Positions 8,496 through 58,826 are shown, counted from the stretch's first letter. The stretch: DNA of 64,000 nt from Minisyncoccota bacterium (GCA_041666645.1 JBAYGN010000001.1:110276-174275); one strand, 5' to 3'. Numbers and translations: made by a program. Notes: generated by a model not told the origin, from the letters alone.

Positions 8496-8516
8496 AGTAG
8501 TTATTTAGTTACGAAA

Positions 8517-41945: not shown

Positions 41946-41964
41946 GTGCGGAGGATGTGAGATT
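41942..41964 (-). repeat. Direct repeat (attR-like): copy of the tRNA-Ser 3' end
   Basis: ACTTGTGCGGAGGATGTGAGATT matches 58543-58564 (ACTTGGCGGAGGATGTGAGATT) with 17 nt exact plus 5 nt after a 1-nt indel. Confidence 0.85.
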
Positions 41965-42045
41965 AGGTCACAAAACTACCTCGCTTTGCTCGAAGTAGTT
42001 TCGCGACCCCTATTCGAATCTCCGCAAGTGACGCAGGTCACTTGC
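41965..42045 (-). repeat. tRNA-linked structured module, copy D (island-internal, next to the repeat)
   Basis: The minus strand reads GCAAGTGAC-CTGC-GTCACTTGC, then GGAGATTCGAATAG, then the hairpin GGGTCGCGAAACTAC...GTAGTTTTGTGACC, then TAATCTC. It is preceded by a long A/T hairpin at 42064-42106. Confidence 0.8.
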
Positions 42046-42267
42046 TTTCTTTACCTTCGCGGTCAAAAGAAAAATCTAGAGTATGAAACTCTAGCTTTTT
42101 CTTTTGATGCGGGCATCCTCGAGTTAGGACCTTTTGAGGACAAGACCTGTAAGGTTATTTATATCATTTTAATTTTTCAAAATCAACGCTCCTCGAGCGT
42201 CTAGAAAAAGTGACAAAAGTGACACAGGATAGACTAGTAAAAGTTACAGTTAATTGTAACTATTTTC

Positions 42268-43032
42268 TTACTTTTTCCTATTTAATTCCTCTTGTGCCCT
42301 TTTTGGATTTGTAGCAAAAACAGTTACACCACGCTTATCTGGATACTCCTCAATTATCATTATTCCACCTTCAAGATCAAATTTTTCACATATAGGTTTT
42401 AGTGCTTCAAGTGTATATGCAAGAAGATCTTTGAATACAAGTTTTCTTAAGTAGTCGTTATATGGTCTTTCCATAGCTAAATCTCTAGTACCCCTGAACT
42501 TTGAGTGCAAATAGGTTGATAAGTGGCTGTAACTGTCGTACACGGAACTTGAACCAATTTCATTAGATTCCTCTCTAATACTTTTACCGTCCCAATGATT
42601 CTTATTATTACCAGACGGAGAATAATCTTCAGTCATCTTTTTAAGATACTCTAGTAACTCTTTTCCTTTTGGAGGAATATCACTCATCTTATCTGCACGC
42701 TTCAAATATTCTTTTGTTGAAAAATATTTATAGTTTGAAGCTCTTTTCTCAGTGTCGTCTTTGTATATGTATCTAAGATTAATAGTAGTCTCTAAAATAC
42801 TACGAGCCATAATAATACAGCTCCTAAAATGACCCTCTTTATAGAGAATCCTCATAGATTCATACATATCAATAATTTCTTTAAGCAGGAAATCGGTAAC
42901 ATCAAAAAGATTATCTGATACTGTGTCTCCTTTTTCTTGAAATTGTTCAAGGTGTGTTTTTAAGAAATGATTGATTCGTTCAAGATCTTTTACTTGTTCA
43001 GGTTCTTTTCTCCAAAAGTTGAATATATTCAT
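42268..43032 (-). CDS. Hypothetical helical protein (last gene of the six-gene operon)
   Basis: 254 aa. Its start overlaps the upstream stop by 4 nt. No catalytic motif recognised. Confidence 0.6.
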   Translation of the reverse strand: MNIFNFWRKEPEQVKDLERINHFLKTHLEQFQEKGDTVSDNLFDVTDFLLKEIIDMYESMRILYKEGHFRSCIIMARSILETTINLRYIYKDDTEKRASNYKYFSTKEYLKRADKMSDIPPKGKELLEYLKKMTEDYSPSGNNKNHWDGKSIREESNEIGSSSVYDSYSHLSTYLHSKFRGTRDLAMERPYNDYLRKLVFKDLLAYTLEALKPICEKFDLEGGIMIIEEYPDKRGVTVFATNPKRAQEELNRKK

Positions 43033-44288
43033 TTCTTCACATTATCATCTAAAGGGACTACTTTCAAATAATCCATAATCTTGTAACCTTTTAGATGTTC
43101 GTGTGGATCAACAAATTTATACCAAGGTTCCATATGATGATAAGTCTCACCGTCTTTTATCTCACTTAAAGAACGAGACTGCACAAGTTTCTTCGGTGGC
43201 AAGAAATCCTTATTATCTTTTATAAGAAAAAGTTGAGTATGAACACCTTTACCATAACAACTAACATTACGAGCCTTTAAAACACCATCTTTAACCCATT
43301 TTCGTATTGTAGGACTTTTGAGATTAAAACTGCTTTCAATATCATATTTTGAATACCAGCTATCTTTAAGTTTTGCCAAAGATGCAGGTATTTCTTTTTT
43401 ATCAATTGCATTCTGACAGATAAGACATTTGATACCCCATCTGTCATACCAATTATCACCTTTATCATGTGTACTATGTCCACATATAAAACATGTATAA
43501 CCAACGCCATCTAAATGAAAACCATTAGGATTTTCTTTTAATTTTTCTTCTCTTGCTTTTTCTTTTTCTTTCCATTCTTCTGAGAATTTTGCCATTTGTT
43601 GCAAACCCCACTTTTCTTCCTGATACTTTTTGCCAGCCTCATGAGTTAAGCAAAAACGGTCACGGTCTATAGCAAAGTTTTCATCTATATCCTCAGCTTC
43701 TTTTTTAGTCCATATATAATCTTCAGTTTTAGAATATTTACACTTTGAACAAGTAAAAGTTGTAACAAGTTTTTCACTGGTATTTTTCTCACTGCGTTTA
43801 AGTAGACTATTACAATGTGGGCAAAGGTCTGGCTTTACTCTCCACTCTTCACCATCAGAGAAGAAAGCTCTTCTAGGAAGACATTGATTAGGACAATCAT
43901 ACATAAATAAAACACGATCTTCTTTGTTTAACTCAGACCACAACTCTTTAAAAGTTGGTTTCAAACGATTACGACAAGTAAGACACCTCATATCTTCAGG
44001 AGCTTGTGCAGATTCATACAACTCATCTCTTTTTCTATCAGAATCCATCCACTCTTGGATAGTCTTTTCTTTATTGAGATACATTTCGCCAGTTTCAAAA
44101 TGAAGGAATAGATCTGCAACAACTTTTCTCATATGTTCTGCCTGTTTCTTACTAACACCCTTAACTTTTGGAAGGCTTGTATCTTTTTCATTGTAAGACT
44201 TTTCAAGTCTACGACAACGCCCAACAGTCATCCGATCATAACGGTCTATGTATTCTTGTCGATCTTTAAGATAGGGTGACTTTTCCAT
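43029..44288 (-). CDS. Hypothetical multi-zinc-ribbon protein with a C-terminal HTH-like segment
   Basis: 419 aa. At least five CxxC pairs: CLTCRN, CPNQC, CPHCNS, CSKCKYS, CFICGH...CLICQN. The C-terminus SPTIRKWVKDGVLKARN resembles an excisionase/MerR-type HTH. Confidence 0.6.
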   Translation of the reverse strand: MEKSPYLKDRQEYIDRYDRMTVGRCRRLEKSYNEKDTSLPKVKGVSKKQAEHMRKVVADLFLHFETGEMYLNKEKTIQEWMDSDRKRDELYESAQAPEDMRCLTCRNRLKPTFKELWSELNKEDRVLFMYDCPNQCLPRRAFFSDGEEWRVKPDLCPHCNSLLKRSEKNTSEKLVTTFTCSKCKYSKTEDYIWTKKEAEDIDENFAIDRDRFCLTHEAGKKYQEEKWGLQQMAKFSEEWKEKEKAREEKLKENPNGFHLDGVGYTCFICGHSTHDKGDNWYDRWGIKCLICQNAIDKKEIPASLAKLKDSWYSKYDIESSFNLKSPTIRKWVKDGVLKARNVSCYGKGVHTQLFLIKDNKDFLPPKKLVQSRSLSEIKDGETYHHMEPWYKFVDPHEHLKGYKIMDYLKVVPLDDNVKK

Positions 44289-44312
44289 ACCTAATTTTGT
44301 AATTATACCACT

Positions 44313-45224
44313 TTAACCAAAGCTTACATTTGGGTCTTTTATTGCATTAATTATCTCCATTCTATTTTTAAAATCTGAAATATCTGAATGACAATCTTCG
44401 ATTTCATCAATTATAGAAGATGAAAAGTCGGTTCTCTTTTTAAGCAGGAACTGTAGGTACTCAGAATCAAGAGCTGGGTCAAGAGGTAACGGTTCAATAT
44501 CTTTGATAACTTTCATTAAAGTAGATTCTTTTGTTTTCATTAAAAATGCGAGAACTTCTATCATTGCAGTTTCTTCATAATCAAAAAGGATGTCATCGCC
44601 ACCACAGAGTATTTTTGCAGCCTTAGAGCTACTGCTAGAAATCTCATCTGTATACAAGTTTTTTGCGTGTGCTGATTCTTTTATTATGAGATAAATATCT
44701 TTAGTAATTTTCTTTACGGTTTTTCCAATAAACTTTTTAACTCTTAATGAATTATCCACACCAAACATGTCGTCTGTAATATCGATTTGAAGATACTTAT
44801 TTAAAAACAAATGTAATGCTTTTTTATCTTTCGATATATTTGTTACTGATTGTAAACTGAAACGATCATATCTATGAGTTTTATAGAAAATTGAAAGAAG
44901 ATTTAATAGAGCAATATGAGAATCACCCAAGTTGATATTAGTACTCTTTTTTATTCTGTTAAGTAAATCAAGATGATTGTGTGTGATTAATGATTTTTCA
45001 AAGATATTAATATCAGTTTTGTCATTAAACTCCAAAAGGACAATAGCGACTTTAAACAATCGCTCAAGTCCAACTGAAAGATTATAAAGAACTGGGAACA
45101 CTTCTGTTTCCATACTTAAGGTTTCCATTTCATGTAGATTCCTTAATCCGTCGTAAATAAAATTACAAGCAATTTCTTGTTCCTCACCAAGTTTAAAGTT
45201 TTGCCAGAATTGTGTAGGATTCAT
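44313..45224 (-). CDS. Hypothetical protein
   Basis: 303 aa. Its start overlaps the upstream stop by 4 nt. No motif recognised with confidence. Confidence 0.6.
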   Translation of the reverse strand: MNPTQFWQNFKLGEEQEIACNFIYDGLRNLHEMETLSMETEVFPVLYNLSVGLERLFKVAIVLLEFNDKTDINIFEKSLITHNHLDLLNRIKKSTNINLGDSHIALLNLLSIFYKTHRYDRFSLQSVTNISKDKKALHLFLNKYLQIDITDDMFGVDNSLRVKKFIGKTVKKITKDIYLIIKESAHAKNLYTDEISSSSSKAAKILCGGDDILFDYEETAMIEVLAFLMKTKESTLMKVIKDIEPLPLDPALDSEYLQFLLKKRTDFSSSIIDEIEDCHSDISDFKNRMEIINAIKDPNVSFG

Positions 45225-45748
45225 ATTGTGTGATCTTTAACTTTTGATAACATTTCATCAGAAGTTTTAGCAATTAACTCCTCTGTAATTCCATATTTTT
45301 TTAGCACTGGGTCCAGAGTTATTGAAAGTTGTTCATCTGCTTCGTTTATTATACTAATAGCATCTTCAAGTTCCTTAATCATACTTTTACGACCGTCAGA
45401 AAATAAAAATTCTTTTGCACGCTCCCTAAAATAGTTATGAGCTAACCAGTTTCGAAGTGTTAATGCTTTTGCTAATTTATCAGAAAGATTTAGTGGTACA
45501 TTGGTTACTTTTTCAAGATCCTTAATCATCCGACCTAGAGTATGTTCAAAGTGTCTTGAAGTAAAAGAATCAACACTATCTTCCCAATCTTTTGAATGTG
45601 ACACTGGCATTTTTGAAGGGATGAGATCGAGATAAATAAGAGCATTAACTAAACCGTGCTCAAGACATTGGGCACTGTAGATAGCAAGTCCAAAATATGC
45701 ATAAACTTCTTTTACTTCTTCATTTTTTGATGATGTATCAATAATCAT
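45221..45748 (-). CDS. Small helical protein with a HEPN-like Rx4H motif
   Basis: 175 aa. LRNWLAHNYF fits the RNxxxH HEPN signature. Its start overlaps the helicase stop by 4 nt. Confidence 0.6.
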   Translation of the reverse strand: MIIDTSSKNEEVKEVYAYFGLAIYSAQCLEHGLVNALIYLDLIPSKMPVSHSKDWEDSVDSFTSRHFEHTLGRMIKDLEKVTNVPLNLSDKLAKALTLRNWLAHNYFRERAKEFLFSDGRKSMIKELEDAISIINEADEQLSITLDPVLKKYGITEELIAKTSDEMLSKVKDHTI

Positions 45749-47580
45749 ATATTTACTATTTCAAATCCTTCAAAACAGGTTTTGTCTTGCATTGCATCAA
45801 ATATGGTTTTTTGTATCGCGAAAGCAAAAAGATCTTGAGGTCGTGAAGACGCAACATAAATTAATTTTTTATATTTTTTAGTTAACTTATTCTGATTATT
45901 TTGCATTCCATGTTCAATATCATATTTACCGTATGGTGATTTGGTACTTGATATAAATAAAGTTGCATTATGGGTTTGACCTTTAACACTATGAATAGTG
46001 CCTATCCTAACATTAACCCCTTGAGAACTTTTATAGGAATTTGTCCTCTCTTTTATTTCAGTAGAAGTAATTTTCTTCATATTAAATTTAATAAGATCTT
46101 CTCCTAAAATAATATTCAATTTTTCCTGTAATTCAGGAAAGTTTAATACTCCTCCATTAGTTAGGATTTCATTACTAATATCTAATACCATCTTTTTAAA
46201 ATCACTATCTTCATTAAAAAGTTTTTCATGTAATTCAGTCCATGTTCCTTCATTCTTGAAATGCTTATAAAGAAGACGGTATAAAATATTGGATACATGA
46301 TGAGTGCCATTTTTTCTGACTAAATCAGGTGTAAGTAAATTTATGTAATCAATATCATTGGAAAATTTTAAAGTTTTATTTTTCTTATTACTTACCGTTG
46401 ATTCCCTGGAATAGGAGTCAGGGAAACTCTCAATTAATTGATCATGCTCATAGGCAATAGCAAAATAGCCTTTCTGGTTGTCATGTGGTATCTGTTTAGA
46501 AATTAAAATTTCTGAGAATTTTTCAAGGAGATCTTCATTACAACCATTTGAGTAAGTAATTAGAATCTTTTCAGAAGTATTAGTAGATCCTCTTATTGTA
46601 TTTTCTCCAAAGGTGTTTAGACAAAAACCACTCACAAAGGTAATTAGATTTGAACCACAGCGAATTGATTGACCCAAAAATAAAGTAGGTTCAGGGGCAC
46701 TCCAAGCATCTTCAGATATAGACTGATTTATGTCCCCAATTTGTTGGAAACATACTTGTGTATTTTTCCCGAACAAATCATCTAACAATTTAAGTTGAAT
46801 TTCAGAACAATCTTGTGATTCATCAAGCAATACAAAATTAAACCTTTTACTAATAATCTTACTGAACACAGGGTGCTGTTTTAAATACTCCAATGCGTAT
46901 ATAAAACTTTCAATAAATAAAAAGTTACCCTTCTGATGTTGTTTATCTATTAAAGTTTTTATATGGGTATTTGATTGAGCCAATGGAAACGCTATAGTCT
47001 TTAAACTATTGTATTCTGTAAGTTTCTTTGAATCTACGACTTTATCTTGATAGAAACATAGCCTATGAAACTCATTCCAAAATCTAGCAACGGCATCATC
47101 TCCTCCGTGTCTTAATTGTGATAGCTTATTCGATATTCTTGTCTTTAAAGAAGTATCCCCGTCATTGTCATAGTCAAGATATCTACTTTCATCTTGAAAT
47201 CTTATCTGCATATTTACACTTGCTAGATAAGGTATAAAAAGAAATTTATTTACAAATTCTTGTATAGTGCCTACAAAATTTGGATACTCCATTATTTCAG
47301 GATAATGATTTGCTACTCTACTTTTGATTTCATCAATAGCAATATTAGTATGGGAAATAACACAAATACCTTTTCCTGTTTCCCAAACTCTTTTTTGAGC
47401 AAGGATATGTAATTTACCAACCAAAGTACTAGTTTTCCCTGACCCTGCATACGATTGTAAAGAACAAGAATCTAAACATTTTAAAAAAGCTTTTTGTTCG
47501 TCTGAAAAAGACCCTTGTCCAAGGAAAATATCTTGTTCGGCTTTATTTATCTCTTCATCTGTGACAATAAAATTACACAT
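45745..47580 (-). CDS. UvrD/PcrA/Rep-like superfamily 1 helicase (GajB-like)
   Basis: 611 aa. Walker A YAGSGKTSTLV, Walker B VLLDESQD, and the C-terminal motifs IGTIHSVKGQTHNATLF and IYVASSRPQDL. Confidence 0.85.
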   Translation of the reverse strand: MCNFIVTDEEINKAEQDIFLGQGSFSDEQKAFLKCLDSCSLQSYAGSGKTSTLVGKLHILAQKRVWETGKGICVISHTNIAIDEIKSRVANHYPEIMEYPNFVGTIQEFVNKFLFIPYLASVNMQIRFQDESRYLDYDNDGDTSLKTRISNKLSQLRHGGDDAVARFWNEFHRLCFYQDKVVDSKKLTEYNSLKTIAFPLAQSNTHIKTLIDKQHQKGNFLFIESFIYALEYLKQHPVFSKIISKRFNFVLLDESQDCSEIQLKLLDDLFGKNTQVCFQQIGDINQSISEDAWSAPEPTLFLGQSIRCGSNLITFVSGFCLNTFGENTIRGSTNTSEKILITYSNGCNEDLLEKFSEILISKQIPHDNQKGYFAIAYEHDQLIESFPDSYSRESTVSNKKNKTLKFSNDIDYINLLTPDLVRKNGTHHVSNILYRLLYKHFKNEGTWTELHEKLFNEDSDFKKMVLDISNEILTNGGVLNFPELQEKLNIILGEDLIKFNMKKITSTEIKERTNSYKSSQGVNVRIGTIHSVKGQTHNATLFISSTKSPYGKYDIEHGMQNNQNKLTKKYKKLIYVASSRPQDLFAFAIQKTIFDAMQDKTCFEGFEIVNI

Positions 47581-47586
47581 ACAATT

Positions 47587-49329
47587 TTATTCGTCATTCT
47601 TAGGTGGTAAAACAAAATTAATTGAATCAACAATATACGGTAAATTATCAGTGATTTCTGTTTTTATAATTTTTACTTTTTTATCTTTTAAATCAATTAA
47701 CTCAGAAATTTTTTGTGCAACTTCTTGAGCAAGAACGGCTTTCTTTTTCTTCATTCTTGAATACAAGAAGCTTACAGGCATTTCATTTGTAAGCAGTGCT
47801 TTCTTTCGCAATATTTTTGAATTATAAGCATCAAGATATAATTGTTTAAGTTCTTTTGTTTTACTTAAGATTAAGGTTTCAAAGGTAGTGCCTTGGTCTT
47901 TTGATATCTGTAACGCAGAATTTAATTGCTCGCCAACAAAACAACCAATATTATTATTTGTATCAATTATTAAGCTCTTATATTTTTCCATCGATGAACT
48001 ATTCCTCTTGTCGGCATCCGTCATAACAGCAATAGGAATTTTGTTGTAAGGTGCGGTTACACGTTTAAAAATATTTACAAAATGTTCAAACCCAAGACCA
48101 TTGGTTGAGACAACAGATAATCCATAATCAGTAAGATCATAACCTAAAACTTTCGCAAACTCAGGTAATAATAATTGTTCTGTCGTACCCTCAACTAAAA
48201 TTACACCTTGTGCAAAAAATAAGTTTGCTTTAGTTGCACTTAAAAATCTTCCTAAATAAGAGTAGTTATCATCAGTTAATTTAGTAGACCCTTTGGAAAG
48301 GGAGTAGAAATCTGCATTATTAATAGTACAAAGCCGTTCAATATCTACGACAGAAGCAAGATTAGGGCTATGGGTAGTTAATATCATTTGAATACCCTTT
48401 TTTGATTCATCTTGTAGAGCACGGATAATTTTGAGTTGTCTCTGTGGATGTAGATGGGCTTCAATCTCTTCCACTAAAAGCATATTAGGATTTTTATGTG
48501 TATTTAAGTGCAACAGTTCTGCCGCAATAAAAATCATATTAAGAGTACCCAATCCTGGCTTATTCAAATTCTCATAATACAAAGAGATTCTCTCTAATGC
48601 TTTTAAGTGATCAATTTTTTCCGTTGGTCCAAAATTTATATCTTTTTTACTGTAATGTGATTGTTCGTCAAATAAATCAAGAAGTCTCTTAACCTCTTCA
48701 GCAATTTCTCCTCCGTTGCCACCAGATGAAAAGAAGTTTTTTGATGAGCGTTCAAAATCTTCCAAGAAACTCTTAAGTTCAAATTCATTATTTTTTATGT
48801 CCTTATGCTCTTTCAATATTTTAGAAATTCTAGATCCTTGTTTTGCTCGTAATTCATTTTCTGCATCTCTTAGCGGTCTTAAATAAACAACTTTAAAATT
48901 TTCACGACAGTGTGGGTCCATGTCTATCGCAACATCCTTTGTTGGTCCAACTTTAAACGATGGGAATTTAATACCTTTCTCATCAGCTTTTGCTGTATAC
49001 CAAATTTTCAACTCAGGAACATCACCTTCACCAAAAGATAAGTATTCTGCAAAGAGACTTGTATCCTCTACAATATCTTCTTCTGAAACACAATCATCGA
49101 AAGCAAAAACAAGGTCAATATTTATTTCTTTTGTAGTGTCTTTGAAATCATCAATTTGTAATTTTACATAGTCATCAACAACTTGTTTCAATACTAATCT
49201 TAAAGCATCTATGAGAGCTGTTTTCCCAGAATCGTTAGCACCAACAATAAGATTAAGCCCACAATTAAAAGTACACACTGCGTCATCAATCTTTCTAAAG
49301 TTTTTAATATGAGCATTTTTGAGATACAT
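47587..49329 (-). CDS. OLD-family ATP-dependent endonuclease, ABC-type ATPase plus TOPRIM (GajA-like)
   Basis: 580 aa. Walker A VGANDSGKTALIDAL, LLVEEIEAHLHPQ, and TOPRIM motifs VILVEGTTEQLLLPEF...VMTDADK. A TATAAT box lies 6 nt upstream of the ATG (49336-49341). Confidence 0.85.
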   Translation of the reverse strand: MYLKNAHIKNFRKIDDAVCTFNCGLNLIVGANDSGKTALIDALRLVLKQVVDDYVKLQIDDFKDTTKEINIDLVFAFDDCVSEEDIVEDTSLFAEYLSFGEGDVPELKIWYTAKADEKGIKFPSFKVGPTKDVAIDMDPHCRENFKVVYLRPLRDAENELRAKQGSRISKILKEHKDIKNNEFELKSFLEDFERSSKNFFSSGGNGGEIAEEVKRLLDLFDEQSHYSKKDINFGPTEKIDHLKALERISLYYENLNKPGLGTLNMIFIAAELLHLNTHKNPNMLLVEEIEAHLHPQRQLKIIRALQDESKKGIQMILTTHSPNLASVVDIERLCTINNADFYSLSKGSTKLTDDNYSYLGRFLSATKANLFFAQGVILVEGTTEQLLLPEFAKVLGYDLTDYGLSVVSTNGLGFEHFVNIFKRVTAPYNKIPIAVMTDADKRNSSSMEKYKSLIIDTNNNIGCFVGEQLNSALQISKDQGTTFETLILSKTKELKQLYLDAYNSKILRKKALLTNEMPVSFLYSRMKKKKAVLAQEVAQKISELIDLKDKKVKIIKTEITDNLPYIVDSINFVLPPKNDE

Positions 49330-49450
49330 AAGACAATTATAACATTTTTGACTTGATTTTTATATATTATGTTGTATTTAAAATTTTGTTATAAATAAAG
49401 CTATGTTAAACTCAAAATAGTACATTCATAAATCACAATCTTGCTTTTTA

Positions 49451-49650
49451 CTGGTCCCACACGGAGGGGCTGTCTGCGGTTTTACCGATGTAAGTTAAAA
49501 GCCACGGGACGTTTATTACCAGCACGAAAGTGTGTTAAGGTACGATCTTTTTTAACGGAAGCAATAATCACAACCATTATAGGTTGTTGTTATTGCGTCT
49601 GTAAAATTCATAAACGCAAAAAACACCAACCTAACAGGTTGGTGTTTTTT
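49451..49650 (+). ncRNA. Candidate structured RNA or leader between the divergent island operons
   Basis: A GC-rich core closed by CTGGT/ACCAG and GTCCC/GGGAC (49451-49522). Then a 15-bp hairpin GCAATAATCACAACC/GGTTGTTGTTATTGC. Then the terminator AAAAAACACCAACC taac GGTTGGTGTTTTTT, which ends 40 nt before the ParB-methylase ATG. Confidence 0.35.
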
Positions 49651-49690
49651 GCTTGTATAAATTAATAATAATTAACAAAAAAATAAACTT

Positions 49691-50965
49691 ATGCAAAAAC
49701 CCAATTGGCGAGCAGAAAAAAGACTACTGAAAGATCTCAAAACATGGCTTGCAAATCCACGCAAAATTACAAAAGATAATTTTGCAAAATTAATAAAAAG
49801 AATAACAGAACGTGGTTTCCATGATGTTATCAAAATTGATACTGATGGGACTGTACTCTCAGGAAATCAAAGGAGAAAAGCATTAATAGAGCTAGGTATA
49901 AAAGAAGTTATTGTTTTAATTCCCGACCGCAAACTCACAGAAGATGAACGTAACAAAATCGCACTCGAAAGTAATATTAATGATGGTGAGTGGGATTTCG
50001 AAGCTTTGAAGTTATTTGAACTAGATACACTTTCGGAAGTTGGTTTTAATGAAATAGATGTTAAAAACATTTGGGGTGAAAATCTAGAAGCTAAAAATGA
50101 CGAATTCAATGAAACTGAAGAACTTAAAAAAATTAAGAACCCTAAAACTAAGAAAGGAGATCTCATAATTTTCGGTAAACATAAGTTACTATGTGCCAGT
50201 TCAACAGATAGTAACGCAGTGAAGGCATTGTTTGGAAATGATAAAGCATCTGTTATCTATAGCGACCCACCTTTTAACATTGGGCTCGACTATAACAAAG
50301 GAGTAGGTTTAAAAGCCAACTATGGTGGTAATGTCGATGATAGTAAGTCAGCAGAAGATTATAAAGAATTTATAAGAAAGACATTAGTAAACGCTCTAGC
50401 AGTATCTTATAAAGATGTTCACTGCTTCTATTGGTGTGATGAGGCTTGGGTGTGGGTATTTCAGACTCTGTACAACGAACTTGGTATTAAAAATAGAAGG
50501 CTTAACATTTGGTTAAAAAATAATTCATCACCTTGTCCTAATGTAGCTTTCAATAAAGCAATTGAAGTGTGTTGCTATGGAACTTTAGGAAGTCCACATA
50601 TTTCTAACTCGTTAAAAAATCTCAATGAGATTATGAACAAGGAGTTAACAACTGGCAATGAATTATTTGATGATGTGACAAATGTACTTGCCGTTAAACG
50701 ACTTCCATCTAATCAATATGAGCATCCGACAAGTAAGCCACCAAGTCTTCATGAAAAACCAATCAAGCGTTGTAGTCAGGTTGGAGATATAATTTTTGAC
50801 TCTTTCTCTGGGTCTTCTAGCACAATGATCTGTGCAGAACAATTAAGCAGAAGGGTGTACTCACTAGAGATTTCGGAAGTCTTTTGTGATTTAGCTATCC
50901 GTCGTTGGGAGAAGTTAACAGGTAAGAAAGTAAAGGTAATTAAAAACTTCTATGAAGAAAACTAA
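49691..50965 (+). CDS. ParB-like nuclease domain fused to an N6-adenine/N4-cytosine DNA methyltransferase
   Basis: 424 aa. N-terminal ParB-type motif VLSGNQRRKAL. SDPPFNIG (motif IV) precedes FDSFSGSSST (motif I), which is a beta-class motif order. Confidence 0.8.
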   Translation: MQKPNWRAEKRLLKDLKTWLANPRKITKDNFAKLIKRITERGFHDVIKIDTDGTVLSGNQRRKALIELGIKEVIVLIPDRKLTEDERNKIALESNINDGEWDFEALKLFELDTLSEVGFNEIDVKNIWGENLEAKNDEFNETEELKKIKNPKTKKGDLIIFGKHKLLCASSTDSNAVKALFGNDKASVIYSDPPFNIGLDYNKGVGLKANYGGNVDDSKSAEDYKEFIRKTLVNALAVSYKDVHCFYWCDEAWVWVFQTLYNELGIKNRRLNIWLKNNSSPCPNVAFNKAIEVCCYGTLGSPHISNSLKNLNEIMNKELTTGNELFDDVTNVLAVKRLPSNQYEHPTSKPPSLHEKPIKRCSQVGDIIFDSFSGSSSTMICAEQLSRRVYSLEISEVFCDLAIRRWEKLTGKKVKVIKNFYEEN

Positions 50966-51353
50966 ACTCCAAAACCAATTCTTTATTGAATTGGAAAAAG
51001 TCCCCATCATTCAAGTTGCTTGTGAAAAAACTGGTATATCTCGTAATAGCGTATACCGTTGGCGTAAGGAAGACAAAGTATTCTGTAAGAATATGGATGA
51101 GTCAATTTCAAATGGTGTTGCACTCGTAAATGATATGAGCGAATCACAGTTACTTAGCCTTATTAAAGAAAAGAACTATTCGGCTATTTCTTTTTGGCTT
51201 CGACATAGAAATGACAATTACAAAGACAGAATAGAAGTAACTACTAAAGAAGAAAAAGGAGAACTTACGAAAGATCAACAAAAAGTTATAAAGCATGCTC
51301 TTAAGCTTGCTTCTCTCACAAAGCAGAAGTCTATTAAAAATATCAACAGATAA
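50952..51353 (+). CDS. Putative terminase small subunit / HTH DNA-binding protein
   Basis: 133 aa. VACEKTGISRNSVYRWRKED is an HTH. It lies directly upstream of the large terminase and overlaps the methylase gene by 14 nt. Confidence 0.55.
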   Translation: MKKTKLQNQFFIELEKVPIIQVACEKTGISRNSVYRWRKEDKVFCKNMDESISNGVALVNDMSESQLLSLIKEKNYSAISFWLRHRNDNYKDRIEVTTKEEKGELTKDQQKVIKHALKLASLTKQKSIKNINR

Positions 51354-51358
51354 GTTAT

Positions 51359-52807
51359 ATGAAAAACAAACATATCTTTGATGTTTTAAGTAGAAATATC
51401 ATCAACAAAATGATGAAAGATAAAGCTGTTAGGGTTGCAATTACTACAGAAAGCTTTTTGTATTTCTTTCACTTTTACTATGCACATTATGTGGGATACA
51501 AGACAGCAGATTTTCAGAAAGAAATTTTTCATTTACTTGAAAAGAGTAATACTGAAAATCTTTACATTGTTGCCTTTCGTGGGTCAGGTAAATCAACTCT
51601 TGTTACTACTGCTTACCCTATATGGGCAATATTAGGTAAACAAAAAAAGAAATTCTGTGTTATCTTTTGCCAAACAAGAAATCAAGCTAAGCAACACATG
51701 ATGAACATTAAAAAAGAGCTCGAAAATGATAATCTTCTTAAAAGTGATCTCGGTCCTTTCCAAGAAGAATCAGATGAGTGGGGGTCGTATTCTTTAGTGT
51801 TTAAAAAACATGGGGCAAGAATTACTGTTGCTTCAACTGAGCAAAGTATCCGTGGTATTCGTCACAATGAACACAGGCCAGACTTAATTATTTGTGACGA
51901 TGTGGAAGATGTTCAATCTGCTAAAACACGAGACGGTCGTGATAAAACATATAACTGGCTTAGAGGTGAGGTTATTCCTTGTGGTGATATAAATACTCGC
52001 TTAATTATTATAGGCAACTTACTTCATGAAGATTCGTTACTGATGAGAATTCAAGATGAGGTGAATAATAATAAAACAAGAGGAGTGTTTAAGAAGTATC
52101 CACTATTAAACGATAATGGTGAATGCTTGTGGACTGGTAAATATCCCGATGAAGAAGCAATCGAGGATGAAAGACTAAAAGTTGCAAGTGAAGTTTCTTG
52201 GTATAGAGAGTATTTACTTAAGATAATCTCTACCGACGGACAAATCGTAAATCCTGAATGGATACAATTTTATGATAAATTTCCAGCAACTGGTCTACAT
52301 AGTATTTGTATAGGTATTGATCTTGCGGTAAGCGAAAGAGATTCCGCAGACTGTACAGCCATGTTAGTTGGGTATGTATATGGAACAGGTAAAAATATGA
52401 AAGTTTATCTAAAAGAGAATCCAATTAATGAAAGAATCTCATTTCCTGTACAAGCAGAATATGTAAAAGCATTAGTAGCTACTGAGAAATTAATACATCA
52501 TAGAGTTAAACTGTTTGTGGAAGATGTTGGATATCAAAAAGCATTTATACAACTCTTTGAAAGTAAGAACTACAATATAGAGGGTGTTCCAACAGGAAGA
52601 AACGATAAAGCTACACGATTAAGAATGACTACTCCTTTTATTAAAGAAGGAAGAGTCCTTTTTCCTAAAAATGGCTGTGAGGAATTGATTCAACAATTAC
52701 TAGGATTTGGAAAAGAAAAACATGACGATCTTGCGGATTCTTTTTCAATCTTAGTATTAAAAGTAATTGAAACTAATCCTAGTGGTGGAGGAATATTATT
52801 TGGGTAA
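51359..52807 (+). CDS. Phage terminase large subunit
   Basis: 482 aa. Walker A FRGSGKSTL and Walker B LIICDDVED. The C-terminal RNase-H-like nuclease has acidic residues at GIDLAVSERDSAD and HDDLADSF. Confidence 0.8.
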   Translation: MKNKHIFDVLSRNIINKMMKDKAVRVAITTESFLYFFHFYYAHYVGYKTADFQKEIFHLLEKSNTENLYIVAFRGSGKSTLVTTAYPIWAILGKQKKKFCVIFCQTRNQAKQHMMNIKKELENDNLLKSDLGPFQEESDEWGSYSLVFKKHGARITVASTEQSIRGIRHNEHRPDLIICDDVEDVQSAKTRDGRDKTYNWLRGEVIPCGDINTRLIIIGNLLHEDSLLMRIQDEVNNNKTRGVFKKYPLLNDNGECLWTGKYPDEEAIEDERLKVASEVSWYREYLLKIISTDGQIVNPEWIQFYDKFPATGLHSICIGIDLAVSERDSADCTAMLVGYVYGTGKNMKVYLKENPINERISFPVQAEYVKALVATEKLIHHRVKLFVEDVGYQKAFIQLFESKNYNIEGVPTGRNDKATRLRMTTPFIKEGRVLFPKNGCEELIQQLLGFGKEKHDDLADSFSILVLKVIETNPSGGGILFG

Positions 52808-53551
52808 CCTTCCTCCACTGTTTAAACAATCATTTATTGAAGCAAAAGAAGTATATTTAAGAGTTGCGTTATAATACCTTGTCCCTTTAGCATGACAGAT
52901 TCCTGTACTACTCTTTTTAACTTCAGTATTGCTAGTACTAACTGTTGTATTGACTATGCTGTTTTCTTTTGGAGCAAGTATGACACTTGTTACCACAGTA
53001 GTAGCAACAGGAACAACATTTGAAGTTGTAGTTTTTGGTTGTACGACTGTTTTAGTGGTAACACCCAATACTTCTATTTGATAGTAAGATAGCCAATCAG
53101 ATGATATTTGTCTTTGTGCTTCTACAATATCCATCTTTCCACCACACACTTGTTTATGTAGATAGTTTTCAAACTTATCCTTTATACGAGCATTATCTTT
53201 GATTGTGTAAGATTCAGGATAAAGATTAGATATGTCATTACTTCCACCAAGCTCTAAACTAATGATATGGTCTACTTCGTAGTTACTTCTTTGAGAGTAA
53301 GGAATACCGTATTCTTTAAATACTTTCTTCTTAGTTGTTTCAGTTACATTTCTAACAGTTTTTGTATAACCTGTTTTACAGATTACTTTTATATCTGTTG
53401 TTAATACTGCCCCAGGAGAACAAGCAGAATCTGGCAGTGTTTGATTACCTACACAGTTACTCGTTTTAGTTTGAATCCCATAAGTAGCAAAAACTACATT
53501 ACTTGAAATTAGAGCTAACGAAACGAAGAATATAGATATCTTTTTGTTCAT
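52796..53551 (-). CDS. Secreted HNH-motif nuclease-like protein
   Basis: 251 aa. Signal-peptide-like N-terminus and YEVDHIISLELGGSNDISNLYPE (an HNH-type motif). Confidence 0.6.
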   Translation of the reverse strand: MNKKISIFFVSLALISSNVVFATYGIQTKTSNCVGNQTLPDSACSPGAVLTTDIKVICKTGYTKTVRNVTETTKKKVFKEYGIPYSQRSNYEVDHIISLELGGSNDISNLYPESYTIKDNARIKDKFENYLHKQVCGGKMDIVEAQRQISSDWLSYYQIEVLGVTTKTVVQPKTTTSNVVPVATTVVTSVILAPKENSIVNTTVSTSNTEVKKSSTGICHAKGTRYYNATLKYTSFASINDCLNSGGRLPK

Positions 53552-53563
53552 AGTATTTACATA

Positions 53564-54040
53564 CTACCTTATAACCATCTCGTTTGGAACCCAACCTGCT
53601 TGTCCTATATATTTACCTTCATTGATTCTAACTTCACTAGAAAAATAACTAGCATCAATCACTTTAACTGCTGTACTTTTATCTACCAATAAAATCTTTC
53701 CATCTAATGACATTTGAGCAAGTCCAGTTGTATCATTAGCTGCAACAAGCTTCATCATTTCATCGTAGTAACTTTTATTTATAGCAACTAAAACTGGATT
53801 ATTACCTGAAATAGTTAAGTGAGCATTCTCTCCAATTTTTACAGATTCAACTACAGGCTGTGATGTGCTTGAACCATCTGAAAATGATGACCGTATAATA
53901 CCTATTACAAAAAGAATTAAGATACTCTGATAGATTCTTTTCTTGATTACTGATGGTTGTTTTTTACCACAATGTTTACATACTGTGGCATCGTTTAAAA
54001 TTTCTTCTTTACAGAAGTTACACTTTTTATTTGTATTCAT
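53564..54040 (-). CDS. Zinc-ribbon membrane protein, hypothetical
   Basis: 158 aa. CNFCKEE...CKHCGKK zinc ribbon followed by one TM. Confidence 0.5.
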   Translation of the reverse strand: MNTNKKCNFCKEEILNDATVCKHCGKKQPSVIKKRIYQSILILFVIGIIRSSFSDGSSTSQPVVESVKIGENAHLTISGNNPVLVAINKSYYDEMMKLVAANDTTGLAQMSLDGKILLVDKSTAVKVIDASYFSSEVRINEGKYIGQAGWVPNEMVIR

Positions 54041-54046
54041 AAATTA

Positions 54047-54190
54047 TCTGATAGGACTTAATAATCTCTCGTGGAAAGCAAAAATCCCACCACGTGAGTA
54101 AGGTCTTGCGACCTTCATATCTGTTTCCAGATATGGCCTATCAGAGCAAAGCCCACATGATGGGGTTTTTACTCTGATAGGACTTTTTTC
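54047..54190 (+). promoter_or_regulatory. Candidate structured leader or small RNA with mutually exclusive helices upstream of the recombinase gene
   Basis: CTGATAGG (54048-54055) can pair with CCTATCAG (54137-54144), enclosing three hairpins. Alternatively CCTATCAGAG pairs with CTCTGATAGG (54172-54181), which is followed by TTTTTT. A possible promoter TTACAC-16 nt-TAAATT lies just upstream. Confidence 0.4.
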
Positions 54191-54342
54191 ACCATATCAA
54201 TATTGCTATTGGGTTAGGTTACTATTGAATTGTTCCTCTTAATACTCTTTGTATTAATCTATTGATTATATCGCAAATAATTGCTTTTGCTAAGGCATTT
54301 TTATCAACAAATAAATCTCTCACAATGTCGCCTTTTTTAATT

Positions 54343-54359
54343 CTGCATAGACTATGCAG
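54343..54359. promoter_or_regulatory. Perfect 8+8 palindrome upstream of the recombinase gene (possible operator)
   Basis: CTGCATAG a CTATGCAG, about 20 nt upstream of the TATAAT that abuts the annotated ATG. Confidence 0.35.
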
Positions 54360-54386
54360 GGATTATGGTTCTGTCATTAATATAAT

Positions 54387-55712
54387 ATGGAACAACAAGA
54401 AACATTTGGACTTATGGGCAATATGGTAGCTCTACCAGTTCAAAAAATGAAATACGTTTTGTATAGTAGAAAAAGTACTGAATCAGAAGAAAGACAAATT
54501 CTTTCAATTGATTCTCAAATTAAAGAAATGCTTAGATTAGCAGAAAGAGAAGGATTAGAAATAGTGGATATCAGACGAGAATCTCATTCAGCTAAAGATT
54601 CAGGACAACGACCAGTTTTTAAAGAAATATTAGAAGATATAAAAAGAGGAAGATTTAATGGAATACTTGCATGGGACGCTTCAAGAATTAGTAGAAATGC
54701 TGGTGACTTAGGTTCAATAGTAGATCTTATGGATCAACAGTTGCTTTTTCAAATACGAACATATGGGCAAACATTTTCTAACTCTCCAAATGAAAAGTTT
54801 TTGCTAATGATTTTATGTTCTCAAGCAAAACTAGAGAACGATAATAAAAGTGTAAATGTGAAGCGTGGACTAAGAACTAGAGTTGAGATGGGATTATGGC
54901 CATGCCCTGCCCCTACTGGATATTTGAAAGAAAATAGAATGGATAGAAAATGTCAGACATATATTGATCCAGATAGAGGTCATATCATTAAAGAAATGTT
55001 TGAGAAGATTGCTTATAATAAATGGAGTTGTTTAAAAGTCTACCATTGGCTTAAATTTGATCTTAATTTTAGAACTTCATACGGAAAGAAACATCTTAGT
55101 TTAGGGAACATTAACTTACTTTTAAAGAACACCTTTTACTATGGAGAATTTGAGTATCCAAGAAAAAGTGGTAACTGGTATAAAGGAAGTCATAAACCAC
55201 TCATTACCAAAGAACTATACGATCAAGTACAAGCTCAACTGACAAGACAAATTACAAGAACAGAATTCAATAACAGAGAATTCGCTTTCACCAAACTAAT
55301 GACTTGTGGGCTTTGCGGTTCTGGTATTACAGCTGATGAAAAGATAAAGAAACAACAGAATGGTAATATTCATCGATATGTCTATTATGCGTGTACTAAA
55401 GCAAAAGATAAAAACTGTAAATGTGGCTATACCAATGAAGACGAACTCATAAAACAGTTTCAAGAACTATTGGATAAAATTGACCTAGACGAGATAGGCA
55501 TGAAAGAAAAGATACGAACTGAGGTTGAAAGGATTAAGAGCTTCCAAAGAAGCGTTTTAGGGGATACAAAGCAAATTAAGGTTAAGGATGTAGATATTCG
55601 TAACTATGCTAAGTACATCCTAAAAGAAGGAACTGACCTAGAAAAAAGAGAACTATTAGGATGTTTTAAAAGTAAGATTTTATTAAAAAATAAAATGATA
55701 TCTATTACTTAG
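54387..55712 (+). CDS. Large serine recombinase
   Basis: 441 aa. N-terminal resolvase motif YSRKSTESEE with the catalytic Ser, then a recombinase domain, then the zinc ribbon CGLCGSG...YYACTK...C.C. The true start may be a later in-frame ATG. Confidence 0.85.
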   Translation: MEQQETFGLMGNMVALPVQKMKYVLYSRKSTESEERQILSIDSQIKEMLRLAEREGLEIVDIRRESHSAKDSGQRPVFKEILEDIKRGRFNGILAWDASRISRNAGDLGSIVDLMDQQLLFQIRTYGQTFSNSPNEKFLLMILCSQAKLENDNKSVNVKRGLRTRVEMGLWPCPAPTGYLKENRMDRKCQTYIDPDRGHIIKEMFEKIAYNKWSCLKVYHWLKFDLNFRTSYGKKHLSLGNINLLLKNTFYYGEFEYPRKSGNWYKGSHKPLITKELYDQVQAQLTRQITRTEFNNREFAFTKLMTCGLCGSGITADEKIKKQQNGNIHRYVYYACTKAKDKNCKCGYTNEDELIKQFQELLDKIDLDEIGMKEKIRTEVERIKSFQRSVLGDTKQIKVKDVDIRNYAKYILKEGTDLEKRELLGCFKSKILLKNKMISIT

Positions 55713-56472
55713 TCTTTGGTTTCTTTTCGCTTATAAACTCACTTATTTTATTTGGTCTATCTCTAAGAAGCCATCTTCGTATGACAGTATTCATATAAGA
55801 GTTCTTTAAACGAAAAGCTCTTATCTCTGCAGGTGTATCACTGAAAGGTTGTTTAGTTTTTGATTTTCTGTCACTTGGGTCTTTAAAAGTTCCTCCATGT
55901 TTAGGGCATAATGTAAGATTTGTGTGTTGGTGTTGATGTATATGATGAGCTTCTCCTTTTTTAATATAATCAAGAATCATTTTGTAATCATCGTTAATTT
56001 CATTAATTACCGTGCTATCCATTTCCCAAAGAAAAACATATTTAATTAAATACTCGGAACGGAGTTTATTTTTGTCATGTATATACCACACGAAAAGAAC
56101 TTTTTTGTTCTTCTTATACAAAGACGACTCTGTTACATTTCCTTTTTTATACTCCTCGCTGTAGTTAATAATATTTAAAGACAAAGGTTCTTTAACCCTA
56201 AGCTTTCCATCTTTACCAAGAGATAAAGGGCTTGTTTTTAATTCAACCCCAAGATGAGGAATATCTGGACCTGCAGTATTGTTTTTACCAATCCCAAAAT
56301 ATCCTTCTTCAATAACATATCCAACTCCAGCTTTCGTGCTGACGCGGGTACTAGAATCACTCGCTGTAATAGAAGCCATTATTTGCTGTAAGGTTTTACC
56401 TTCAAGATCATGTTGTGCAATTTTTTCTAAATCTTGAGAAGTCTTTATTTCAGCTAAATTAAGAATTGACAT
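55705..56472 (-). CDS. MutH/Sau3AI-family type II restriction endonuclease
   Basis: 255 aa. GPDIPHLGVELKTSPL matches the D...E-x-K core of MutH-like nucleases. It is divergently paired with a C5 methyltransferase. Confidence 0.7.
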   Translation of the reverse strand: MSILNLAEIKTSQDLEKIAQHDLEGKTLQQIMASITASDSSTRVSTKAGVGYVIEEGYFGIGKNNTAGPDIPHLGVELKTSPLSLGKDGKLRVKEPLSLNIINYSEEYKKGNVTESSLYKKNKKVLFVWYIHDKNKLRSEYLIKYVFLWEMDSTVINEINDDYKMILDYIKKGEAHHIHQHQHTNLTLCPKHGGTFKDPSDRKSKTKQPFSDTPAEIRAFRLKNSYMNTVIRRWLLRDRPNKISEFISEKKPKTK

Positions 56473-56573
56473 GTAATCGCATTATAGAACAAAAACTTGA
56501 TCTTCTCCACCTTTTGTGTTTTAATACTTAAAGCTTGATCGAAACAATCCAATGTGATAGAATTATCTTTGAT

Positions 56574-57815
56574 ATGAAAAGTGATAATAAAAAAATTAGA
56601 GTTGTTGAATTGTTCGCTGGTGTTGGTGGTTTCCATATAGGTTTAAAGAGAGCTTCAAAAGATTTTGAGGTGGTTTTAAGTAATCAATGGGAGCCAGCCA
56701 CAAAGAAGCAACATGCTTCAGAAGTTTATATAGAACGATTCGGGTCTGATGGACATACTAATGTTGATATTAAAACACTTACTATCTCCGAAATTCCAGA
56801 ACATGATTTGTTAGTAGGAGGATTTCCTTGCCAAGATTATTCTGTTGCAACTAGTCAAGCAAGTGGTCTTGATGGAAAAAAAGGAGTGTTGTGGTGGGAG
56901 ATTCATAGAATTTTAAAAGAGAGTGGTAAAAAAGCACCTTCATATTTAATGTTAGAAAATGTTGACCGTCTACTGAAATCACCAACATCACAAAGAGGTA
57001 GAGATTTCGCAATCATGCTTTCTTCTCTTAATAGTCTTGGGTATGCTGTAGAATGGAGAATAATTAACGCGGCTGATTATGGTATGCCACAACGAAGAAG
57101 AAGAGTGTTTATTATGGGATATAAGAAGGGAACTGCTTTATACGAGAAAATTACAGAGAATAAAGATGTATCTGATTGGATAAAAAAAACTGGGACAATA
57201 GCAAAAGCTTTTCCTGTCAAAAAAGAAGTCTACTTAAATGATTTCAAAATTGAAGGAACTCTTGCAGAAATTACAAAAGAGTTTAATAAAGAAAATCCAT
57301 CGAGAAGCCCATTTGGTACTGCTGGGGTATCTATTAATGGAAAAGTAACTACTGGTGATATTGAACCAGATTATTCTGGTAAGCGTATTAACCTTGGTGA
57401 TATTGTATTAGACGAGAAAGATGTCCCTAAAGAATTTTTTATAGAGAAAAAAGATATAGAAAAATGGAAATATCTAAAAGGGGCAAAGAAGGAAGAGCGT
57501 AGTAAAGGTGATTTTACTTTCTTTTATGTTGAAGGTCCTATGGTATTTCCTGACTCACTCGATAAACCATCAAGAACAATCATTACAGCTGAAGGAGGGT
57601 CAACACCTTCTCGTTTTAAACATGTTATAAAAACAAAATCTGGAAAGCTAAGAAGACTAACTCCTTTGGAATTAGAAAGATTATGTATGTTCCCTGATAA
57701 TCATACAGAAGGTCAAGCAGATACAAAAAGAGCTTTCTTTATGGGCAACGCTTTAGTTGTCGGTGTCATAGAAAGGTTAGGAAAACACCTTTCTAAAGAA
57801 GTGTCTAAAGATTAG
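56574..57815 (+). CDS. dcm: DNA (cytosine-5)-methyltransferase
   Basis: Motif I FAGVGGF, motif IV GGFPCQDYS, motif VI ENV, motif VIII QRRRRVF, motif X GNALVV. I prefer the ATG at 56574 to the track TTG at 56535. Confidence 0.92.
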   Translation: MKSDNKKIRVVELFAGVGGFHIGLKRASKDFEVVLSNQWEPATKKQHASEVYIERFGSDGHTNVDIKTLTISEIPEHDLLVGGFPCQDYSVATSQASGLDGKKGVLWWEIHRILKESGKKAPSYLMLENVDRLLKSPTSQRGRDFAIMLSSLNSLGYAVEWRIINAADYGMPQRRRRVFIMGYKKGTALYEKITENKDVSDWIKKTGTIAKAFPVKKEVYLNDFKIEGTLAEITKEFNKENPSRSPFGTAGVSINGKVTTGDIEPDYSGKRINLGDIVLDEKDVPKEFFIEKKDIEKWKYLKGAKKEERSKGDFTFFYVEGPMVFPDSLDKPSRTIITAEGGSTPSRFKHVIKTKSGKLRRLTPLELERLCMFPDNHTEGQADTKRAFFMGNALVVGVIERLGKHLSKEVSKD

Positions 57816-58083
57816 TATTAGTTGAAATTCCTATTTTAGATAAGTTAATTAGCAGTTGCTTACTAGATTCCTCAAAACCGCCTTCAAAAAGAAAAGAATC
57901 TGAATGGTCAACCCATACAATTTCTGGAACTGTTTCTAAAATTAGTTCACTTATATTTTTATGAAGACTTTTTATTTCTTCTTTTGACAGTTTAGATTCT
58001 ACTAAAGATTTCTCTATAGTCTCAAGCAGGGTTGGGAGTTCTTTGTTATCAGGCTTAAATTGTTCACTCCATTTAATTGTCAT
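57805..58083 (-). CDS. Hypothetical protein
   Basis: 92-aa ORF. No motif recognised. Confidence 0.4.
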   Translation of the reverse strand: MTIKWSEQFKPDNKELPTLLETIEKSLVESKLSKEEIKSLHKNISELILETVPEIVWVDHSDSFLFEGGFEESSKQLLINLSKIGISTNTNL

Positions 58084-58121
58084 TATTATATACTACTCCT
58101 TTTTATCTAAGTTGAAAACCT

Positions 58122-58445
58122 TTAAATTCTATTTGTATCAACTGTTTCTTTAGATAAATTATCCAAATCTTCTACAACTGCAATAAATTCTCTTTCTTCT
58201 TTTTCAATTTTAGCTAACTCTTTATCTGAATATTCAGTTTTTAAACTTTCTTCTCTTGTTACCTTTTTTAAATATAAATATATTAACCACTCAACACCCA
58301 CTGCGAATATAAACAATAAAATACTTAAAACTGGGTGATTAGTGTGCTTAAAACTATTTATAAAATTACTAAACATTCCCAATACAAGCCAAATGCCGAC
58401 AAACTCTATCCAATAGTTCTTTATCCAAGATTTTAGGGATTTCAT
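58122..58445 (-). CDS. Hypothetical membrane protein
   Basis: 107 aa with two hydrophobic helices. Confidence 0.45.
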   Translation of the reverse strand: MKSLKSWIKNYWIEFVGIWLVLGMFSNFINSFKHTNHPVLSILLFIFAVGVEWLIYLYLKKVTREESLKTEYSDKELAKIEKEEREFIAVVEDLDNLSKETVDTNRI

Positions 58446-58545
58446 AAAAATTATTAGTTAAATTATATCACAAAAGCTACCTAATTAAGGTAGCTTTTGT
58501 TGTCATTTAATTCTATGCTCATCGAGCACCAGAACCTAAACGACT

Positions 58546-58802: not shown

Positions 58803-58826
58803 AGATTTTCACTGCATTTCAATCTG

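Follow-up and report, generated by a model that had tools for sequence, protein, structure and literature searches.

The six-gene block and its signals

The DNA examined here is a 64,000-nucleotide stretch from a Minisyncoccota bacterium (GCA_041666645.1 JBAYGN010000001.1:110276-174275), hereafter the window, and our subject is a block of six tightly packed minus-strand genes at positions 42268-49329 that begins with the two genes of a Gabija defence system, gajA and gajB. The four genes that follow encode proteins that we call p175, p303, p419 and p254 after their lengths in amino acids. An initial annotation made from the sequence alone described the block as one translationally coupled operon and proposed that the four additional proteins are accessory, sensor or effector parts of an expanded Gabija-like system, or a second system joined to Gabija on one transcript. 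The six open reading frames (ORFs) match this first description exactly, in length and at each of the five junctions: a 6-nt gap between GajA and GajB, 4-nt overlaps between GajB and p175 and between p175 and p303, a 24-nt gap between p303 and p419, and a 4-nt overlap between p419 and p254. All of the 4-nt overlaps are of the ATGA type. Homologues exist for all six proteins, which indicates that all six are real genes. The features of the locus are collected in Table 1.

Table 1. Features of the six-gene block and of the surrounding element, in window coordinates
Feature	Position	Strand	Evidence
GajA, class-2 OLD nuclease (ABC-ATPase + TOPRIM), 580 aa	47587-49329	-	PADLOC, Pfam
GajB, UvrD-like superfamily 1 (SF1) helicase, 611 aa	45745-47580	-	PADLOC, Pfam
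p175, small HEPN-type-motif protein, 175 aa	45221-45748	-	conserved motif, weak HepT match
p303, all-alpha protein, widespread uncharacterised defence-island family, 303 aa	44313-45224	-	homologues, AlphaFold2 (AF2) model
p419, multi-zinc-ribbon protein with C-terminal winged-helix-like segment, 419 aa	43029-44288	-	homologues, synteny, AF2
p254, DUF5677 protein, 254 aa	42268-43032	-	Pfam
Extended -10 box TGTTATAAT, candidate cassette promoter	49336-49344	-	read from sequence
Extended -10 box TGGTATAAT, candidate p419 promoter, in the 24-nt p303/p419 spacer	44302-44310	-	read from sequence
Hairpin + T-run, candidate terminator downstream of p254	42076-42094	-	hairpin scan
ParB-like + N6/N4 DNA methyltransferase, core gene, divergent from the cargo arm	49691-50965	+	phrog_498 4.5e-76, Pfam N6_N4_Mtase
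TerS	50952-51353	+	PHROG terminase family, syntenic in related loci
TerL	51359-52807	+	PHROG terminase families including phrog_38 1.4e-81 (reported for the terminase pair), syntenic in related loci
251-aa HNH-motif protein with N-terminal signal-peptide-like segment, right after TerL on the opposite strand	52796-53551	-	weak Pfam HNH
LOOT RNA (Rfam RF03000), divergent from the recombinase gene	54100-54220	-	87.1 bits against a gathering score of 46.4
Large serine recombinase, element integrase	54387-55712	+	Pfam Resolvase, Recombinase, Zn_ribbon_recom; syntenic in related loci
MutH/Sau3AI-like endonuclease, type II restriction-modification (R-M) cargo	55705-56472	-	Pfam MutH 1.5e-22
C5 cytosine methyltransferase, type II R-M cargo	56535-57815	+	Pfam DNA_methylase 4.4e-67
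Left 17-nt exact direct repeat GCGGAGGATGTGAGATT, att-like, displaced tRNA-Ser 3′ end	41948-41964		repeat search
Right copy of GCGGAGGATGTGAGATT, inside tRNA-Ser 3′ end	58548-58564		repeat search
tRNA-Ser, unusual anticodon ACT	58546-58635	-	ARAGORN
Second tRNA-Ser (GCT)	58826-58913		

GajA and GajB constitute, judged by sequence, a bona fide, canonical two-gene Gabija pair, and on this point the initial annotation was right. GajA matches the PADLOC GajA profile (E = 1.4e-141) and the Pfam families AAA_15 (3e-35), AAA_21 (1e-20) and OLD-like_TOPRIM (4e-17); its translation shows a Walker A motif (GANDSGKT) and TOPRIM motifs (VEG...DAD), and its sequence relatives in the PDB are the OLD-family nucleases 6p74 and 6nk8, class-2 OLD among them. 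GajB matches the PADLOC GajB profile over its full length (residues 2-611, 8.7e-106) and Pfam UvrD-helicase (1.2e-21), and the two genes are adjacent and co-oriented. The GajA/GajB complex cuts invading DNA when nucleotide pools change, a form of nucleotide control, and in published work Gabija suffices as a two-gene system. A search of viral contigs returned no relatives of GajA.

No convincing intrinsic terminator was found inside the six-gene block, in agreement with the initial annotation, and the sole intergenic hairpin with a T-run lies behind p254 (42094-42076). Extended -10 boxes of the form TGnTATAAT precede both gajA and the p419 gene. The first is located 6 nt 5′ of the GajA ATG and is kept as TGCTATAAT in L002, a contig nearly identical to the window, and as TGGTAAAAT in the related locus L162. 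The second is located 13 nt 5′ of the p419 start codon, and the same box with the same spacing precedes p419 in two other loci (L104 and L130) in which p419 heads its unit. The closeness of both boxes to the start codons suggests that the transcripts would be leaderless or would have very short leaders. A sigma-70 promoter scan carries no weight by itself, as shuffled sequences gave more matches than the real one. Because of the -10 box before p419, the six genes may form two overlapping transcription units rather than the single operon first proposed.

A defence hotspot in a probable integrative element

The repeat pair in Table 1 bounds 16.6 kb of DNA (41948-58564), with the six-gene block as its far arm, and from this arrangement we take the segment to be a probable ∼16.6-kb integrative element at the 3′ end of a tRNA-Ser gene. 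In a comparison with PICI-like phage satellites, TerS, TerL and an integrase are present, and no gene for a capsid or tail was seen in the profiled subset of the element's ORFs. A zinc-ribbon protein is also found among the genes between the terminases and the serine recombinase. The type II R-M pair is further cargo, placed within the element on the tRNA side of the serine recombinase. A Candidatus Paceibacterota metagenome-assembled genome encodes proteins identical to p419 and p175. We found no description of this element family in the literature searched.

To place the block in context we use two surveys, one of 80 genome loci that carry p303 homologues and one of 80 metagenomic loci that carry p419 homologues. 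The related loci of the p419 survey share a fixed, divergent gene order consisting of serine recombinase (-), TerL (-), TerS (-), methyltransferase (-), a gap of variable length and p419 (+). In the 28 loci where the gap between methyltransferase and p419 could be measured, it ranges from 0.07 to 5.5 kb: 16 of these gaps are shorter than 1.1 kb, one measures 1.4 kb and the other 11 span 2.4-5.5 kb, and the window has a gap of 5.4 kb. Where gaps are filled, the cargo includes cyclases of cyclic-oligonucleotide-based antiphage signalling systems (CBASS; three), SAVED-HNH effectors (two), E1/E2/JAB genes, a Shedu SduA, a NACHT-domain protein and S24/LexA-like repressors (seven), and the slot is taken up in Saccharibacteria copies by Hachiman HamA/HamB or by a different Gabija subtype. 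The interval between the methyltransferase and p419 is a defence hotspot, with conserved core genes on its flanks and variable cargo rich in known defence systems.

A LOOT RNA was detected in six of seven related elements of the candidate phyla radiation (CPR) that were scanned (L003, 483-610; L004, 3257-3377; L092, 4944-5062; L097, 5674-5787; L100, 2725-2842; L162, 1339-1465). It lies upstream of the recombinase gene in five of these six, and between the recombinase gene and TerL wherever TerL is seen; in the window, the distance to the large serine recombinase gene, on its 5′ side, is 166 nt. The LOOT RNA looks like a core RNA of the element family. The main text of the paper in which the motif originates contains no discussion of it.

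p419 and p254

The p419 gene is syntenic with the element and not with Gabija. It occurs together with the methyltransferase in 29, TerS in 22, TerL in 12 and the serine recombinase in 19 of the 80 p419 loci, and Gabija, p175 or p303 is found near it in none of them. In other loci, p419 is followed mostly by host genes, which makes it the terminal core gene of the element. Its 339 homologues are 56-72% identical to it, and every one that has a source name comes from Patescibacteria. Common to them are three or four CxxC zinc ribbons and conservation of the C-terminal half. The AF2 model (predicted local distance difference test score, pLDDT, 83.5) contains a helical hairpin, beta zinc ribbons and a helix-helix-beta-hairpin at residues 314-355, and a Foldseek search with this model gave local zinc-ribbon matches only, to RPB9 and NrdR. 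No match to p419 was obtained in Pfam, NCBIfam, PADLOC or PHROGs, nor in the PDB by profile search. p419 is probably a DNA-binding regulator or a recombination accessory factor.

The last gene, p254, is an occasional passenger behind p419. It matches Pfam DUF5677 (PF18928) with 70.8 bits against a gathering score of 27.1 (E = 1.9e-19) and belongs to a small subfamily; 78 representatives were collected, 23 of these at E ≤1e-30. A p254 homologue directly follows p419 in three of the 80 loci only (L085, L088 and L089). No relatives of p254 were found in viral contigs, phages or plasmids, and a comparison by hhalign showed the p175, p303 and p254 families to be mutually unrelated. DUF5677 is enriched near large serine recombinases in Bacillota in the study of serine-recombinase-associated defence islands (RADS), and one DUF5677 gene was tested there in E. 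faecalis and was not among the five protecting genes (bioRxiv 10.1101/2025.10.07.681051).

The p254 subfamily has a HEPN-like motif, Y-x-R-L-S-x-Y-x-H (R170-x5-H176), in which the arginine is present in 18 of 19 other aligned members and replaced by glutamine in one. The window protein has histidine at this position, residue 170.

Genes that travel with GajA and GajB

The initial proposal implies that the four additional genes accompany OLD/UvrD pairs elsewhere, and this is not what the surveys show: such a pair accompanies p419 in 0/80 loci, p254 in 0/80 apart from the near-identical contig L002, and p303 in 5/80. The complete six-gene order recurs in the near-identical contigs L001 and L002 only. 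In two diverged loci, L162 and L180, the Gabija cassette and p303 are present and p419 and p254 are missing.

Sequence identities across the diverged copies separate p175 from p303 (Table 2). The divergence of p175 follows that of GajA and GajB, whereas the divergence of p303 does not. In L162, the cassette is 76-84% identical to that of the window, as compared with 46% for the methyltransferase, 46% for TerS and 63% for the serine recombinase of the backbone, and the identity of p303 across CPR elements (57-65%) falls in the range of the backbone genes. Because the cassette is more conserved than the backbone and p303 is in the backbone range, we read GajA-GajB-p175 as the exchangeable unit and p303 as a gene that has resided longer in the slot, at its distal edge.

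Table 2. Amino-acid identity (%) to the window proteins in loci with related Gabija cassettes
Locus	GajA	GajB	p175	p303
L002	95	91	94	90
L162	84	76	81	64
L176	83	84	75	62
L180	67	69	absent	86

p175, a HEPN-motif protein

The p175 family comprises 98 clusters of proteins of ∼172 aa. The Rx4H motif noted in the initial annotation is present and invariant: in an alignment of 31 sequences, the motif R99-N-W-L-A-H104-x-Y106 has invariant R99, N100 and H104 and a near-invariant Y106. Rx4HxY is a signature typical of HepT/DUF86 HEPN proteins. The best curated HEPN match, NCBIfam HepT_toxin, spans the motif with 14.6 bits against a cut-off of 60 (E = 0.023). p175 also matches phrog_12893, an unannotated PHROG (1.7e-11), and no match was obtained in Pfam or, by profile search, in the PDB. 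On the basis of the motif, p175 is probably an RNase that serves as an extra or autonomous abortive-infection/toxin module, or as an added effector for ABC-ATPase systems.

The order GajA-GajB-p175-p303 is found in L002, L162 and L176. Elsewhere, p175 homologues come after complete PDC-M01A/B pairs (PtuA/PtuB-like, Septu-like) in L163, L164 and L177, are the first gene beside the ParB-methyltransferase in L166, or occur with a 163-aa gene, next to an HTH_37 gene or without a recognisable partner. A p175 hidden Markov model (HMM) run across the other 160 loci matched the near-identical contig L002 only. The association of p175 with OLD/UvrD pairs is confined to one GajAB lineage and is not obligatory. 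Among the four additional genes, p175 is the only one that acts like a possible Gabija add-on, and it would be a dispensable one, absent from L180, and promiscuous in its partners.

In Pseudoxanthomonas sp. NC8 (L165, 3900-15700), a p175 homologue lies amid small co-oriented ORFs with a tyrosine integrase adjacent, in what resembles an integron-like cassette array.

p303, a widespread all-alpha family

The p303 family is large and widely dispersed, with 480 homologue clusters of ∼305 aa in many phyla. Its invariant polar residues are E54, R55, K58, E65, E76, H82, H84, R118 and R121. The AF2 model has 14 helices (pLDDT 86) and finds no match in the PDB or BFVD by Foldseek (best E = 0.4); searches of Pfam, NCBIfam, PADLOC and PHROGs gave no match to p303, nor did a profile search of the PDB, and none was found in phages.

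By iterated HMM search, a full OLD + UvrD pair is present in five of the 80 p303 genome loci and absent in 75. The immediate neighbours of p303 vary and include HsdM/N6_Mtase, Eco57I, GmrSD, AAA_15/21 ATPases, resolvases and type IV secretion system coupling proteins. In three Saccharibacteria loci (L006, L007 and L010; ∼5990-10906), HamA (3e-90) and HamB (8e-273) are followed in the cargo slot by a 142-aa PD-Lambda-3_A-like gene and then by p303. The gene comes after a different Gabija subtype in L004 and L005, before a third Gabija subtype in L037 and L081, and after the type I R-M genes HsdS in L055 and HsdR in L078. It is the lone cargo gene on 6.5-kb Lactiplantibacillus plasmids and also stands alone on Bacillus plasmids. 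This distribution suggests that p303 is an autonomous gene of a widespread stand-alone defence-island family.

In Moraxella sp. VT-16-12 (L059, 9051-13303), a p303 homologue lies between glyQ and an apparent glyS, which encode the alpha and beta subunits of glycyl-tRNA synthetase, and overlaps glyQ by 4 nt, an odd housekeeping site for a defence-island gene.

Interpretation of the block

We consider it likely that the six genes are not one six-part system: a Gabija system with an added HEPN-motif gene would be stacked with genes independent of it, in the variable cargo region of a ∼16.6-kb Paceibacterota integrative element. In such an element, the serine recombinase, LOOT RNA, TerL, TerS and ParB-methyltransferase would form a conserved backbone that we assign to one strand (with the LOOT RNA itself called in the divergent orientation; Table 1) and p419 to the other. 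The slot in the window would hold the canonical Gabija pair, p175 coupled to GajB, and p303, with p303 as old in these elements as the backbone. p419 would be an element gene with its own promoter-like box, and p254 would be a passenger behind p419. Transcripts may start in the divergent region and extend across the cargo genes, and another start may precede p419. The tight spacing and the ATGA overlaps would then reflect compact co-oriented packing, probably with read-through, and not a single six-component machine. The idea that the four additional proteins serve as the accessory, sensor or effector set of one expanded Gabija is not supported, as p419 is a core gene of the element, p254 follows p419 in 3/80 loci only and p303 is incongruent with GajAB. 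What can be kept of it is that p175 is a possible add-on and that the alternative wording, a second system in the same transcript, comes near to the truth.

Several points weigh against this interpretation. The order GajA-GajB-p175-p303 with ATGA overlaps is found in at least four diverged variants (the window and L002, L162, L176, and, as GajAB-p303, L180). An OLD-type ATPase is the immediate neighbour of p303 in 8/80 genome loci from several phyla, which may exceed chance. The position of p175 behind two different ABC-ATPase systems, Gabija and PDC-M01, fits a shared accessory role as well as it fits autonomy, and all six genes may be co-transcribed. The functions of p175, p303, p419 and p254 discussed here are inferred. 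Finally, the att sites are assigned from one 17-nt repeat, and long repeats are not required by large serine integrases.

One alternative is a Gabija subtype of three or four genes in which p175, and possibly p303, are functional accessories of the GajAB lineage and p419 and p254 are unrelated. These accessories could, for example, act as a second effector triggered by the GajA ABC-ATPase, so that DNA cleavage is supplemented by RNA cleavage and abortive infection. Such a subtype would account for the ATGA coupling of p175 to both GajB and p303, for the retention of the block in L002, L162 and L176 (and as GajAB-p303 in L180), for the parallel divergence of p175 and GajAB, and for a cassette that, being 76-84% identical against 46-63% for the backbone, moves as a unit. 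It would also fit the finding of p175 behind PDC-M01 pairs, where a PtuA-like ATPase and a PtuB-like protein again make up an AAA_15/21 ATPase system, and of p303 behind a second, very different Gabija subtype (L004, L005) and in front of a third (L037, L081). However, p175 is missing from GajAB-p303 in L180, and its homologues also occur without an ATPase partner, in the integron-like array, with the HTH_37 gene, with the 163-aa partner or alone. The identity of p303 is incongruent with that of GajAB, 75/80 p303 loci lack an OLD + UvrD pair, and the gene also follows Hachiman and type I R-M systems and occurs alone on plasmids. Gabija, moreover, is established as sufficient with two genes. 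We regard a functional subtype of this kind as unlikely. A bolder version, in which p175 and perhaps p303 are plug-in effectors for ABC-ATPase defence systems and GajA-GajB-p175(-p303) is a distinct multi-gene Gabija subtype in which RNA-targeting abortive infection supplements DNA cleavage, carried in the cargo hotspot of an undescribed family of Patescibacteria integrative elements with terminase genes and a LOOT RNA, is a speculative proposal that we hold with slightly less conviction.

Two further explanations are highly improbable. A single six-component expanded Gabija with all four additional proteins as dedicated parts would explain why the genes lie on one strand, overlap or nearly abut and are not interrupted by a strong terminator, and why the order is the same in the near-identical contigs L001 and L002. 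It is contradicted by the 0/80 p419 loci with Gabija, p175 or p303, by L162 and L180, which have the Gabija cassette and p303 without p419 or p254, by the synteny of p419 with the element backbone and not with Gabija, by the promoter-like box before p419 and by the unrelated systems that the hotspot holds elsewhere. The chance placement behind Gabija of two toxin-antitoxin-like pairs, p175/p303 and p419/p254, is suggested by the 4-nt overlaps within the pairs and the 24-nt gap between them, and HEPN proteins are common toxins and p254 relatives carry an Rx5H motif. Yet the p175 HMM finds no partner in the 79 other p303 loci, p175 homologues are mostly without p303, p303 is without p175 in L180, 76/80 p419 loci lack p254, and neither pair is conserved as a pair. 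As obligate pairs, p175/p303 and p419/p254 are ruled out by co-occurrence.

If the block is indeed Gabija stacked with independent genes, it shows that six genes in a compact CPR genome can be tightly coupled in translation without belonging to one system, which corrects an attractive reading. It also provides a hotspot with defined flanks in Patescibacteria, whose immunity and mobilome are poorly known, where new systems might be sought as they were in the P2/P4 hotspots. The p303 family (480 clusters, modelled confidently as all-alpha and without a structural match) and the p175 family (98 clusters and a HEPN motif) recur 3′ of known defence cassettes, and these uncharacterised families are good candidates for anti-phage tests. 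The orphan LOOT RNA gains a genomic home beside a serine recombinase gene and with it a testable handle on its function.

Comparison with known systems

The window pair has both proteins that define Gabija, full length, adjacent and co-oriented, with strong PADLOC matches and with ATPase, TOPRIM and SF1 helicase domains. It differs in that its lineage adds a translationally coupled 175-aa HEPN-motif gene right after gajB, in four diverged variants, and in that the window copy resides in a Patescibacteria mobile element; no description of Gabija with a HEPN third gene was found in the literature searched. p175 resembles the HepT/DUF86 minimal HEPN toxins in its invariant Rx4HxY, its small size and its weak HepT_toxin match over the motif, whereas its score is far under the family cut-off and it has no MNT-type antitoxin neighbour. 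With Septu/PDC-M01 and PARIS-type systems the arrangement shares the principle of an ABC-type ATPase combined with a small nuclease effector, and p175 homologues trail PDC-M01A/B, although GajA has its own TOPRIM nuclease and the p175 motif is of the HEPN type and not HNH or TOPRIM.

At the level of the element, the closest comparisons are with islands and satellites. RADS islands likewise link a large serine recombinase to defence cargo; the RADS study, however, concerns Bacillota, and in the window ∼11 kb separate the recombinase from DUF5677, which occupies the element's far end. The P2/P4-like hotspots of phages and satellites have reportedly been mined for new defence systems. Unlike these, the window element has a CPR/Patescibacteria host and a backbone consisting of a serine recombinase, LOOT RNA, TerS/TerL, ParB-methyltransferase and p419, with no capsid or tail genes seen in its 16.6 kb. 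It resembles them in its organisation, with conserved flanks (methyltransferase/terminase on one side and p419 or p303 on the other) and different defence systems in between.

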